This document shows positions 4,074 through 22,103 of a stretch of 58,730 nucleotides of DNA, piece after piece. The DNA lies in sequence record SRR20825019_449; one strand, given 5' to 3'. The stretch's first letter is position 1. Each line of letters begins with the position of its first letter. The translations under genes were made by a program, and so were the position numbers. The notes under the pieces were generated by a model. It made no database searches, was not told where the DNA came from, and was given only the letters and a program-made list of their open reading frames with translations.

Positions 4074-4438
4074 TGAAAACACCCGGCATGGAAAAGCAGC
4101 GCCTTTCCCCCATCGCCTGGGTCGCGCTTGGGATTATCAAGATATATCAGTTGTTTATCTCGCCACTTCTGGGGCCAAACTGCCGCTTTCAGCCCACCTG
4201 CAGCGCTTATGCGGTTGAGGCTATTCGCACCCACGGCGGTGTGCGCGGGTCATGGCTGGCAATATGCCGCATGGCAAGGTGCCATCCTTGGGGTGGATTT
4301 GGATACGATCCTGTGCCACAAAGCGGGCGCAGTTTAGCAAGTGAGGCAGAGGCACCATGTGGTTGCGCCGATGCACACAAGAGTGAAAAGGCTGGCCAAG
4401 ACCGGCCGCATGATCAGGGTATGACGTCTCATGGGTGA
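4073..4438 (+). CDS. yidD: Membrane protein insertion efficiency factor
   Basis: [23 protein letters not shown]...[14 protein letters not shown]. Confidence 0.95.
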
Positions 4439-6174: not shown

Positions 6175-6828
6175 ATGGAAGAAGAACGCTTCACCCAGAC
6201 AGATATGGAACGTGGCCGGCTTTTATTTGCCGGCCCCGTTGACTTTGTCATGGGCGCGGTTTCGCTTGATACCCTGCCGGGCGCTGACCGGCCGGAAGTT
6301 GCTTTTGCCGGACGCTCGAACGTTGGTAAATCAAGCCTTGTGAACGCACTTACGGGCCGCAAGACGCTGGCGCGTACGTCAAACACACCGGGCCGCACGC
6401 AAGAGCTGAACTATTTCTCCATCGGGAAAGAGCTTGAGCTGGACGCCTATATGGTTGACCTGCCCGGTTATGGGTACGCCAAGATTGAGCGCAAGAAAGT
6501 GCATGCCTGGACCCGGCTGGTGAAAGATTACCTGCGCGGGCGGCCGAACCTGCGCCGGATCATGCTGTTGATCGACAGCCGCCATGGCCTCAAGGAAAAT
6601 GACCGCGAGATCATGACCATGCTGGATGAAGCCGCTGTCAACTATCAGGTCGTGCTCACCAAGCTTGATAAGCTCAAGGTGATTGACCGCGAAAAGATCC
6701 TGAAAAAAACCCAGGACGACGCGAAAAAATATATCGCCTGCCATCCTGTTGTGCTGGCCACCTCAAGCGAAAAAGGCTGGGGCATCCCCGAGCTGCGCGC
6801 GGAACTTTGCCAGACCTTCTCTTTTTAG
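6175..6828 (+). CDS. engB: Ribosome biogenesis GTPase YihA/YsxC
   Basis: GRSNVGKSS, DLPGYG, TKLDK; follows yidC. Confidence 0.95.
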   Translation: MEEERFTQTDMERGRLLFAGPVDFVMGAVSLDTLPGADRPEVAFAGRSNVGKSSLVNALTGRKTLARTSNTPGRTQELNYFSIGKELELDAYMVDLPGYGYAKIERKKVHAWTRLVKDYLRGRPNLRRIMLLIDSRHGLKENDREIMTMLDEAAVNYQVVLTKLDKLKVIDREKILKKTQDDAKKYIACHPVVLATSSEKGWGIPELRAELCQTFSF

Positions 6829-19581: not shown

Positions 19582-20352
19582 CTAGGCGTCGTCGTCCGCC
19601 ACCTTGTGCGTGAGCAGATTCCCAAAACCTGCTTCGGCGATCAACTGGTCAGACCGGGTCACGACGGCCGCTTCCACTCTCTCCATGAAGCCGGCTTTAT
19701 CAAGCCCGTGCTCAATCGGGCCATCAATCTCAAACACGGCAGTACCGCCCCGGTGCCAGAACCCTTTTGTCCAAAACAGGCCGGTGTTGGTTGCAACCGT
19801 ATAAACCGGCAGGTCTGTATCCGCCTGCAGGTAATAGGCGCCGCTTTTCAGCCTGCGGTAATGGCCGGGGCGCATCCGTGTTGCCTGCGGGTAAACAATA
19901 AGCGGACGCCCCATCTCCTGAATATGTTTGGCAACATCTTCCATGCCCTTGTGCGCCGTGCGGCTTTCGCGGTCAATTTTAACAATCTTGGCCTTTCGGA
20001 GGGCGGCACCAATAAAAGGCACATGAAACAGTTGCTTTTTCGCAAGCGCCGTCACGTCATTCCGTATGGGGAACGTCATGATCGGGTCCATATTCGACTG
20101 GTGAGCTGCCGCGAGTATGAAAGCGCCTTCTTTTGGTAATTTTTCCAGCCCGCGATACTCATGTTTCAGGCCAAGGGTCAAACGCGCGATCCACAGCGAG
20201 CCCCTGCAGTAGTAATGAATACCCCTACGAATAGGGCCATCTGTTTTGGCCAGACAAAGTGGCATCAACCCGATGCTGCAATAAATGAGTGTAAAGGGAT
20301 AGTAGATCAGGTTGAACAGGATGGAGCCGATCCCATTTCTCAATAGTTTCAC
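19582..20352 (-). CDS. 1-acyl-sn-glycerol-3-phosphate acyltransferase (PlsC family)
   Basis: HQSNMD (HX4D), AKKQLF, IDRE, YPQATR; GTG start after AGGAG. Confidence 0.85.
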   Translation of the reverse strand: MKLLRNGIGSILFNLIYYPFTLIYCSIGLMPLCLAKTDGPIRRGIHYYCRGSLWIARLTLGLKHEYRGLEKLPKEGAFILAAAHQSNMDPIMTFPIRNDVTALAKKQLFHVPFIGAALRKAKIVKIDRESRTAHKGMEDVAKHIQEMGRPLIVYPQATRMRPGHYRRLKSGAYYLQADTDLPVYTVATNTGLFWTKGFWHRGGTAVFEIDGPIEHGLDKAGFMERVEAAVVTRSDQLIAEAGFGNLLTHKVADDDA

Positions 20353-20504
20353 GAACGTCTCTCCTGCTGGTAAACCACATTTGTTGCGCGGCACGCGCAT
20401 CCGACATAGGCATTGCCACTATAGCCGGGTTTAACTCAAGAAAAAAATCCGTTAGCGTTGAGCAATGACGGGTATGCTTCGCCCATGCAGCAAGGGGATT
20501 TCAG

Positions 20505-20846
20505 GTGACCGACCAGGACAAAAGACAGGATGACCGACTACCCGTGCTGTGGCATGGCACGCTCATGACAAATGATGACCGCGAGTTTCCCTGCCAGATA
20601 AGGGATATCAGTCTCGCCGGGACACTGATCACCTGTGATGCAGACGTCAAAATGGGCGATGAGCTATTGCTGACAATTGACCGTATCGGTGAGTTTGCTG
20701 GCGTGGTGAAATGGCAGGGCTCACAAGGGCTGGGCCTGATGATCCTTGCGGGGCCAGACCTATTCCTCAAAAAATTCGCCGAAGGTGCCGGAAGCGGCCT
20801 TTCGGAAGCTCCCAATGCACCAACGGACGACCCTCTCGCAGGATAG
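20505..20846 (+). CDS. Single-domain PilZ protein
   Basis: RQDDR (RxxxR) and DISLAG (DxSxxG) c-di-GMP-binding motifs. Confidence 0.88.
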   Translation: MTDQDKRQDDRLPVLWHGTLMTNDDREFPCQIRDISLAGTLITCDADVKMGDELLLTIDRIGEFAGVVKWQGSQGLGLMILAGPDLFLKKFAEGAGSGLSEAPNAPTDDPLAG

Positions 20847-20859
20847 TTGGACAATCCGG

Positions 20860-20890
20860 AAAAAAATAAGGCGGCCGGGGGATGGCCGCC
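20860..20890 (-). terminator. Intrinsic terminator of the minus-strand sigma54 transcript
   Basis: Minus strand GGCGGCC-loop-GGCCGCC followed by TTATTTTTTT. Confidence 0.8.
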
Positions 20891-20985
20891 GTTATTGAGC
20901 GTAAACTGCCGAGTGCTATCCTGCTGAGTGCTCTGAGTGTCTAGCTGTCATATTATTATTGTTATATCGGTATCACCCTCCGCTT

Positions 20986-21105
20986 TTACTTGCGGAGTTT
21001 GTGACGTCGTGTACGGCGGCGGCTATATTTTGCTTCAGTAACGCCGAAGCTCGCATAAACCACCAGGGTCGGGCTTTCTGGTAAAACTGTGTTCAGGAAT
21101 GCCAT
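20986..21105 (-). CDS. 39-aa small protein MAFLNTVLPESPTLVVYASFGVTEAKYSRRRTRRHKLRK
   Basis: GAGGAG RBS 7 nt before ATG; lies within the sigma54 transcript. Confidence 0.55.
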   Translation of the reverse strand: MAFLNTVLPESPTLVVYASFGVTEAKYSRRRTRRHKLRK

Positions 21106-21218
21106 TTGTCTTCTCCTCGCTGTCGCGCCTCTTATGGGCGGATATCTGGTTGCCGGGTTTCCGGTCGCATTCAATGCTGTCGTTGTCGTTTCGGTTTTTG
21201 TTTTGTTGCCTGAATATC

Positions 21219-21235
21219 AGCAAGGCCTGTGCCAG
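21219..21235 (-). promoter_or_regulatory. Sigma54 -24/-12 promoter
   Basis: Minus strand CTGGCAC-AGGCC-TTGCT, exact TGGCAC-N5-TTGCW consensus. Confidence 0.85.
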
Positions 21236-21252
21236 AAACATAAATCCATATA

Positions 21253-21265
21253 AATCAATGAGTTA
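21253..21265 (+). promoter_or_regulatory. IHF binding site
   Basis: AATCAATGAGTTA matches WATCAANNNNTTR; sits between the promoter and the upstream palindromes. Confidence 0.7.
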
Positions 21266-21296
21266 ATTTTTATTCTCCGACACTAGTCAAGAGATG

Positions 21297-21335
21297 TGTT
21301 CGATTCCGAACAGATATAGTGTCCGAATATGAACA
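21297..21335. promoter_or_regulatory. Two upstream activator sequences for an enhancer-binding protein
   Basis: TGTTCGattcCGAACA (21297-21312, perfect 6-bp arms) and TGTCCGaataTGAACA (21320-21335); both TGT-N10-ACA. Confidence 0.65.
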
Positions 21336-21440
21336 ACTGACAGACAGTGTTTCCAGCTGGGCCTTGCAATTTTCTCACACTCGAGTATATATGCCTTATA
21401 CTAAATATAAAGATTTCTTTATATTATGAAGGAACACCGT

Positions 21441-22103
21441 ATGAGTTATCCCTCCATTCCTCACCGAGAGGAAGACTGGTCCCGCATCACGGGCCTGATC
21501 AAAGCCTATCCCTTTGCTCATTTATTCACTGGCAGCGGCACAAGGGCCCGGGTCACTCGCCTGCCGTTTGCGTTTGATGATACCGGCGAGGGTGGTGGCA
21601 GCTTGCGCGCACATATGGACGCCCGCAACCCACAGGTCAGCGCCCTTGACGACACGGATGTGCTGGTGGCTTTCTCAGGGCCAGACGCCTATGTATCGCC
21701 CAATTGGCGGAATGACAGAAGCCGCGGCGCGACATGGGACTACACGGCCGTGCATATCTGGGGTCGTGCGGTTATACGGCGCGACCGCGATTTTTTCGCC
21801 ACGCTTATCCGCGACCTCGCCGCACCGGCTGAGGAGAAATACCAGTCACTTTCAGACGCACCCACCTGGACCTTTGAGGATGCACCCGAAGACTATGTAA
21901 ATCGGTTGTTGCCGCATCTGGTGGGGTTTGAGATTACCATCACCCGCGTGGAAGCCATCTCCAAACTGCATCAGGACTTCGCGCCCAAGGATGCGCTGCG
22001 TGTTGCAGACCATCTTGCCCAAAGCCCGAATGAGGATGGACGGACTATCGCCAGCCTGATTCGGGCGAAAACCGCGCTCAAACAAGCGAAACGAACCAGC
22101 TAA
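21441..22103 (+). CDS. FMN-binding negative transcriptional regulator (PaiB family)
   Basis: LRAHMDARNPQ, FSGPDAYVSPNW, TWDYTAVH, KLHQD. Confidence 0.88.
   Translation: MSYPSIPHREEDWSRITGLIKAYPFAHLFTGSGTRARVTRLPFAFDDTGEGGGSLRAHMDARNPQVSALDDTDVLVAFSGPDAYVSPNWRNDRSRGATWDYTAVHIWGRAVIRRDRDFFATLIRDLAAPAEEKYQSLSDAPTWTFEDAPEDYVNRLLPHLVGFEITITRVEAISKLHQDFAPKDALRVADHLAQSPNEDGRTIASLIRAKTALKQAKRTS

Follow-up and report, generated by a model that had tools for sequence, protein, structure and literature searches.

A predicted sigma-54 transcription unit of Kordiimonas-related DNA combines a small-protein gene with an unusually conserved RNA tail

The minus strand of positions 20860–21335 of the analyzed window (the whole 58,730-nt stretch of record SRR20825019_449) carries what its sequence indicates to be a stand-alone sigma-54 transcription unit and not a CrcZ-like decoy: a small-protein gene followed by an RNA tail of unusual conservation. 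A sequence-only reading of this region had proposed a non-coding, sigma-54-driven RNA of CrcZ-like architecture that titrates Hfq. That proposal was partly supported: the unit is real, since all the elements named in it are present at their positions on the minus strand and are kept in relatives, and comparative analysis bears out a separate unit, some 350 nt long, that has a sigma-54/IHF/upstream-activator promoter. As a whole, the locus is best explained as a unit of a pump-linked sigma-54 regulon that would make both a micro-protein and a 3'-UTR regulatory RNA, which we consider rather probable. By similarity, the relatives of the window's DNA belong to the genus Kordiimonas. The nearest genome, G001 (4.2 Mb), has 97% of sampled words in common with the window and carries a unit that is 100% identical. 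The predicted transcript of about 347 nt runs on the minus strand from around position 21208, a start placed by promoter geometry, to the terminator at 20860.

The upstream part of the unit contains two TGT-N10-ACA palindromes, as previously reported, located on the minus strand at 21320–21335 (distal, TGTTCATATTCGGACA) and 21297–21312 (proximal, TGTTCGGAATCGAACA). Both are predicted activator sites that fit the pattern TGTWCG-N4-YGAACA, and the 7-bp spacer between them is conserved. The bare TGT-N10-ACA pattern is not enriched within the window (15 found vs 10.3 expected); a refined version, TGTYCR-N4-YGRACA, occurs three times in the 4.2-Mb genome of G001, and two of these three matches lie at the unit, 7 bp apart. 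Between the activator sites and the promoter, at 21253–21265 (no strand assigned), is the sole window match to the IHF consensus, which we take to be WATCAANNNNTTR; the proposed IHF site was thus recovered, and its core TAA...TTGAT is kept in same-clade homologues. The sigma-54 -24/-12 promoter TGGCAC-N5-TTGCT (21219–21234, minus strand) is unique in the window as an exact match, also when the pattern is relaxed to TGGCAC-N5-TTGCW, which agrees with the earlier description. One sigma-54-like site with one mismatch, TGGCACGGGCCTTGGA, is located at 1749–1764 of the window, also on the minus strand. The genome of G001 encodes rpoN. The predicted 5' UTR (21106–21208, minus strand) begins with the CA/A-rich sequence CAACAAAACAAAAACCGAAACGACAACGACAGC, exactly as had been read, and includes a conserved leader element, ACGACAGC, at 21176–21183 (minus strand). 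CA/A-rich leaders were also found 3' of other sigma-54 promoters of G001, namely those of psp and of a porin-like gene, and an A-rich leader after a sigma-54 promoter need not mean a CrcZ-like decoy.

The palindromes, IHF-like site, promoter, Shine-Dalgarno (SD) sequence with its ORF, and terminator are all kept at homologous loci in four other same-clade genomes, whose units show 70%–81% identity. Among these five genomes, mean pairwise identity was 69% for the twin palindromes (21 of 39 columns invariant), 86% for the -24/-12 promoter (13 of 18), 90% for the SD region (15 of 19), 74% for the ORF (65 of 120), 44% for the A-rich part of the 3' UTR (5 of 52), and 100% for a 31-nt block at 20903–20933, where all 31 columns are invariant. 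Diverged homologous loci with all elements were present in seven more genomes, and their parts follow the order twin palindromes, IHF-like A/T tract, promoter, CGACAGC leader, SD sequence, ORF, 3' motif, and terminator. A convergent PilZ-domain gene is located downstream of most of these diverged units; in the window, the stop of the convergent PilZ gene is at 20846. The fold of the whole RNA barely beats that of shuffled sequences (z of -1.94).

The statement that no long ORF lies inside the transcript is literally true, but it passes over a 39-codon ORF (with stop) at 20986–21105 on the minus strand, preceded by the SD sequence GAGGAG (21113–21118, minus strand) located 7 nt upstream of the ATG. 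In the five close homologues, differences at codon positions 1, 2, and 3 numbered 70, 55, and 185, and the in-frame pN/pS was 0.11–0.40 at a pS of 0.39–0.75, while pN exceeded pS in both shifted frames. Because of these codon-position differences and pN/pS values, the ~347-nt RNA is judged to be coding; by this substitution pattern, the ORF is under purifying selection, and its translation is predicted. The product, MAFLNTVLPESPTLVVYASFGVTEAKYSRRRTRRHKLRK, was aligned with its homologues. All ten aligned products keep the N-terminus M-x-F-L-N-x-V, the middle is variable, and the arginine tail SRRRxRRxK has invariant residues R30, R31, R33, and R34. A six-frame profile search detected the ORF in 12 of the 32 genus genomes: ten matches were strong (65–76 bits), and the two marginal ones were confirmed by promoter context. 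The same search found no such ORF in 13 genomes from other genera of the family. Among 1.84 billion representative sequences, the micro-protein had six matches, four of them genuine (35–40 aa) and two spurious repeats. Its cluster contained no named members, Pfam and NCBIfam returned no matches to it, and an atlas search gave no usable match. The AlphaFold model is of low confidence (mean pLDDT 60.5) and shows only a C-terminal helix at residues 29–38. Judging from these searches, the micro-protein is an arginine-tailed orphan whose relatives have no known function. A conserved small ORF (MNxMxQLxS...) also precedes pspA in the psp operon of G001 (L100, ~6350–6520) and of another genome, G042 (L101, ~4100–4270); in G001, it ends in an arginine-rich sequence (ERRVRRIERRRRRLH) reminiscent of the window micro-protein.

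Downstream of the ORF, the 3' UTR starts with an A-rich (AAY)n tract, AUAACAAUAAUAAU, at 20952–20965 (minus strand), a possible Hfq distal-face site. It reads as the sequence-only reading had given it, and it was retained as A-rich in clade 1 only. This tract is followed by the invariant block GAGCACUCAGCAGGAUAGCACUCGGCAGUUU (20903–20933, minus strand), composed of GCACUC[A/G]G repeats, with a third repeat, ACACUCAG, just upstream at 20933–20940 (minus strand). The block is exact and single-copy in 5 of the 32 genus genomes, and the remaining 40 genomes sampled from the family contained no near matches with up to three mismatches. Synonymous sites in the five block-bearing species are near saturation. 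The unit ends with an intrinsic terminator at 20860–20890 (minus strand), in which a stem of seven G-C pairs (20870–20890) precedes a U-run extending to 20860; the strong terminator seen earlier is therefore present, and homologous terminators contain compensatory changes. In the five genomes of clade 2, the 3' part consists of a hairpin, an invariant, largely unpaired 15-nt motif, GACACUCAGCGAGGA, and the terminator, five pairs of which are changed on both sides. The clade 2 motif includes the core CACUCAG, which is unpaired between the hairpin and the terminator. In the two genomes of a third clade, the 3' motif is GAC(A)CCUCACUGCC. The 3' motif is constant within each clade and differs between clades. 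A consistent structure around the block was not seen in the window's clade.

The 3' part of the unit resembles sRNAs derived from 3' UTRs in that its intrinsic terminator is common to it and the upstream mRNA, and in that conservation of the putative seed (all 31 positions invariant) exceeds that of the ORF (74% mean identity). The hfq gene is encoded in G001. A regulatory RNA role is favored for the 3' part because its motif, constant inside each clade, changes from one clade to the next, its setting is sRNA-like (A-rich tract before the motif, U-tail after it), and Hfq is present. Most likely, the 3' module is a putative Hfq-associated regulatory RNA, acting within the mRNA or after 3' processing, and its possible Hfq-dependent role would then be that of an mRNA-borne element rather than a sponge.

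A serious rival, which we regard as possible but distinctly less probable, is that the unit is only a small-protein gene and its block works in cis, on the mRNA that contains it, or binds a protein, with no trans-acting RNA role. The block could serve mRNA stability, termination efficiency, or docking of ribosomes or proteins, possibly including the arginine-tailed product itself. The coding signature of the ORF is in line with such a role, and no internal promoter able to make a separate 3' RNA was predicted. Target searches, which covered part of the genome, also gave nothing above controls. In G001, the complement of the block had two non-self near-matches; both fall in coding sequence, and chance alone would give about as many. 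When 159 translation-initiation regions from the window and two loci were scanned for duplexes, the block scored below shuffled seeds, and its pairing with a second sigma-54 RNA, described below, entered the 5% tail in just two genomes out of 12, without compensatory change; in both tests, the shuffles preserved mononucleotide content only. In addition, similarity was noted between the motif and SD contexts, with that of the unit itself, GACAGCGAGGAG, among them: of nine one-mismatch matches of the clade 2 motif elsewhere, three are the SD sequences of ordinary genes, and a search for the 15-nt motif with up to one mismatch gave 14 matches vs 3 for the reversed control, several of which are due to chance or are ordinary SDs. 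Against this rival, 31 of 31 invariant positions together with a tandem 8-nt repeat exceed the usual need of a cis-element; the succession of hairpin, single-stranded motif, and terminator is typical of sRNAs; and a motif fixed in each clade yet changing between clades behaves like a seed co-evolving with its partners. CsrA, considered as a protein acting on the GGA-containing block, was not found in G001.

In a sister genus, the motif GAUACUCAGCGAGGA and a terminator directly follow pspC (L101, 5709–5775, in G042, and L087 in G043). The pspC 3' UTR of G001 (L100, 8054–8170) contains, in place of this motif, six CGGAC repeats and GACACUCAC before the terminator. Either chance produced these sequences, or a second envelope-stress operon under sigma-54 may carry regulatory modules in its 3' UTR.

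According to the sequence-only reading, the activator of the unit should be encoded elsewhere, and a candidate was identified in G001, a pump-linked response-regulator-type sigma-54 activator. This genome encodes seven true sigma-54 activators: FlbD, NtrC, NtrX, PspF, a LuxO-like protein, and two generic response regulators. The gene of one of the latter is located about 0.5 Mb from the unit and is followed by a PAS histidine kinase gene; it is divergent from an operon encoding an HlyD protein, an ABC ATPase, and two MacB_PCD-FtsX permeases. The intergenic region between activator and pump contains three palindromes, TGTGCGATATCGGACA, TGTACGATAACGAACA, and TGTACGGTATCGAACA, just upstream of the -24/-12 promoter TGGCACGGGCTTTGC, which faces the pump operon. 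We collected 80 loci with orthologs of the activator, 75 of which were long enough to use, from Kordiimonas and from Colwellia, Halieaceae, Thalassotalea, Kangiella, and others (64%–71% identity). At least one palindrome of the same type was present within 560 nt upstream in 74 of the 75 loci. The upstream sequences contained 171 such sites (4.07 per kb), compared with 3 (0.016 per kb) in coding and downstream control sequence. The consensus of the 171 sites, TGTWCG-N4-YGAACA, is the pattern that both window sites fit.

The twin palindrome with up to two mismatches was found in 17 genomes of an order-wide draw of 301, and the reversed control gave none. An ortholog of the activator is present in 16 of these 17 genomes vs 86 of the 301 overall, a count weakened by shared ancestry: in the out-group genus g43, 14 of 18 genomes carry the activator, which confounds the association. 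Within the genus, the phylogenetic profile is uninformative, as the LuxO-like and the pump-linked activators each occur in nearly all genomes. No activator gene was found within about 10 kb of the other palindrome-driven genes. There are at least two operators upstream of a -24/-12 promoter in the unit, G001 has both the activator and the kinase, and the unit apparently belongs to the regulon of the pump-linked response regulator, as judged from operator sequence. It seems to be a lineage-specific addition to this regulon because five other activator-bearing genomes have clustered palindromes at the activator locus only. The literature search returned nothing on the pump-linked activator, its operator, or the small-ORF unit.

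Two further features of this system were observed. Far from the activator gene, MacB/FtsX-like permease genes that stand alone are likewise driven by the twin palindrome with a sigma-54 promoter (loci L052 in G114, L054 in G122, L060 in G004, and L063 in G053); FtsX-like permeases are named as sigma-54-regulated, in general terms, in the consulted part of PMC12316311. The activator-kinase-pump module with its conserved operator is found in Kordiimonas, belonging to Alphaproteobacteria, and in many marine Gammaproteobacteria at 64%–71% protein identity (L103–L182), a distribution that suggests horizontal spread of the whole module.

It is very doubtful that another activator, such as NifA, the LuxO-like protein, or PspF, binds the palindromes. 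NifA is the classic TGT-N10-ACA binder, and the palindromes match its upstream activator sequence, if only formally; however, all seven activators of G001 fall short of the NifA cutoff of 528.85 (best score 357). The LuxO-like protein is present in G001, with 595 bits to the LuxO model, but strong orthologs, found in 70 of the 301 genomes, are missing from all six palindrome-bearing genomes outside the genus. For PspF, a similar 3' motif follows pspC in the sister genus, while the pspF-pspA intergenic region, although it contains a separate sigma-54 promoter, lacks a palindrome. CbrB was rejected too: its subsites are TGTTAC/GTAACA, and the CbrAB system is described in the consulted part of PMC6296734 as exclusive to Pseudomonads, whereas the window sites TGTTCATATTCGGACA and TGTTCGGAATCGAACA differ from these subsites.

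The original reading of the locus as a non-coding, CrcZ-like RNA titrating Hfq through A-rich motifs now appears most improbable, being contradicted by the ORF, the Rfam results, the activator site, and the number of motifs. CrcZ has more A-rich motifs than the window RNA. Of the CrcZ features, the sigma-54/IHF promoter and the length of about 350 nt recur in the unit; CbrB-type sites, non-coding status, and several conserved AANAANAA motifs do not. The window RNA does contain three overlapping AANAANAA matches vs 0.44 in shuffles, and hfq is available in G001, but the matches make up only two tracts, which are not kept in clade 2: there, each of four of the five homologues contains just one match, no more than shuffles give, and its position is not constant. 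The conserved ORF looks translated, and the leader is similar to those of other sigma-54 mRNAs. A permissive Rfam scan (E up to 10) of positions 20300–21900 gave five weak, chance-level matches, none of which was CrcZ or CrcY. The best, narK, scored 19 bits vs a threshold of 43 and was aligned merely to promoter letters; this sub-threshold match arose because the start of the consensus of RF03032 ("narK RNA"), GGCaCAgcucUUGCU, reads like a sigma-54 -24/-12 promoter, and it was aligned at 21174–21233 of the window. As far as the available part of PMC6296734 describes them, CrcZ and CrcY of Pseudomonas are like the unit in the sigma-54 promoter, IHF site, upstream activator, similar length, and some A-rich motifs, but CrcZ is non-coding and driven by CbrB, whereas the unit is coding, has other operators, and lacks an Rfam match.

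We give little credence to two alternatives that place the block outside the minus-strand RNA, either as the 3' UTR of the convergent PilZ gene or as a DNA-level site: it does lie 57–87 nt past the PilZ stop at 20846, and the PilZ neighbor is conserved, but on the plus strand the block falls beyond the hairpin, the U-run makes this hairpin a terminator on the minus strand only, and the order of block, small ORF, and terminator is the same in every clade.

Several known systems share features with the unit as explained here. CpxQ is an envelope-stress sRNA from the cpxP 3' UTR; like the unit, it pertains to an envelope-stress-type regulon and a small-protein mRNA whose 3' end may regulate, but the sigma factor is different, there is no homology, and the unit is known here from its sequence alone. 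The Qrr RNAs of Vibrio are LuxO/sigma-54-dependent non-coding sRNAs of about 100 nt with an invariant region of about 32 nt. The unit resembles them in sigma-54 control and in an invariant stretch of about 31 nt that precedes the terminator, but it is longer and coding, Rfam gave no Qrr match in it, and the LuxO-like ortholog was found in none of the six twin-palindrome genomes outside the genus, so that the unit is not assigned to the Qrr family. SgrS/SgrT is a dual-function RNA. The same is true of VcdRP of Vibrio cholerae, which combines a 29-aa protein with a base-pairing region, according to the accessible part of PMC8672173. These two RNAs are similar to the unit in being short transcripts with a micro-protein ORF and a separate conserved RNA segment, but they have no sequence relation to the unit, which is under sigma-54 and whose RNA function is predicted. 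In Enterobacteriaceae, the 3' UTR of the NtrC/sigma-54-dependent glnA mRNA gives rise to the sRNA GlnZ (PMC9731577, in part). By that account, both cases involve a sigma-54/activator-dependent mRNA, a conserved regulatory RNA in the 3' UTR, its role being putative in the unit, and a terminator common to the RNA and its mRNA, but the upstream gene of GlnZ encodes an enzyme and not a 39-codon orphan ORF, and the activator is NtrC and not a pump-linked regulator.

A separate sigma-54 RNA family of about 125 nt was found in addition to the unit. It lacks an ORF and consists of two invariant copies of UUUUGCCUGAG and a terminator, preceded by three TGT-N11-ACA palindromes (e.g., TGTTTCAATTTGAGACA), an IHF-like site, and a -24/-12 promoter. 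Its architecture resembles that of Qrr. In G001, this RNA is encoded outside the window, on the minus strand of contig C1 at about 274100–274300 (L233); other loci are L008/L222 (G003) and L223–L232, and every one of the 12 genomes with the unit, G001 among them, has it. Of 45 family genomes, 20 contain the UUUUGCCUGAG motif, some of them in 2–4 copies, and the reversed control gave none. This RNA is a better candidate than the window unit for the sigma-54-driven regulatory RNA of the lineage. Same-sense copies of UUUUGCCUGAG are located in the 5' region of the LuxO-like gene (L263, about 200 bp upstream, in G014, and L034, position ~7435, minus strand, in G001) and beside Flp-pilin genes (L261, L257), and the motif may be a shared recognition element for some partner. 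The LuxO-like activator of G001 (L034, 5863–7260) scores 595 bits against the Vibrio LuxO model, under the cutoff of 800; it is present in 42 of 45 family genomes, rpoN lies about 5 kb away in G001, and no LuxU-like gene was recognized adjoining it at L034 of this genome.

It is conceivable, but improbable, that the unit is the two-part output of an efflux- or envelope-sensing system in which its CACUCAG repeats pair with the UUUUGCCUGAG repeats of the second RNA and with the 5' region of the LuxO-like gene. If true, two sigma-54 circuits of a marine alphaproteobacterium would be wired by RNA-RNA sponging, and the micro-protein and the 3'-UTR RNA would cooperate.

Returning to the explanation that we favor, in which the unit belongs to the pump-linked regulon and makes a micro-protein and a 3'-UTR regulatory RNA, the following sequence of events may be proposed. 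The kinase would be triggered, presumably by an envelope- or efflux-related signal, and the pump-linked activator would bind the two TGTWCG-N4-YGAACA sites. IHF would bend the DNA, and sigma-54 polymerase would start transcription near 21208. The first output would be the 39-aa cytoplasmic micro-protein; the second would be the 3'-UTR RNA module, comprising the A-rich tract, the repeated single-stranded CACUCAG-type motif, and the terminator with its U-tail, and this module may act in trans.

Comparative genomics provides the operator and the first predicted regulon members of an uncharacterized sigma-54 two-component system, which is tied to MacB-type pumps and is common to marine Alphaproteobacteria and Gammaproteobacteria. 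In Kordiimonas, this regulon appears to have gained a rapidly evolving gene for a micro-protein, to which an ultra-conserved RNA tail is fused. Few sigma-54-driven small proteins and few sigma-54-linked 3'-UTR regulators are known, and the unit would represent a compact case.
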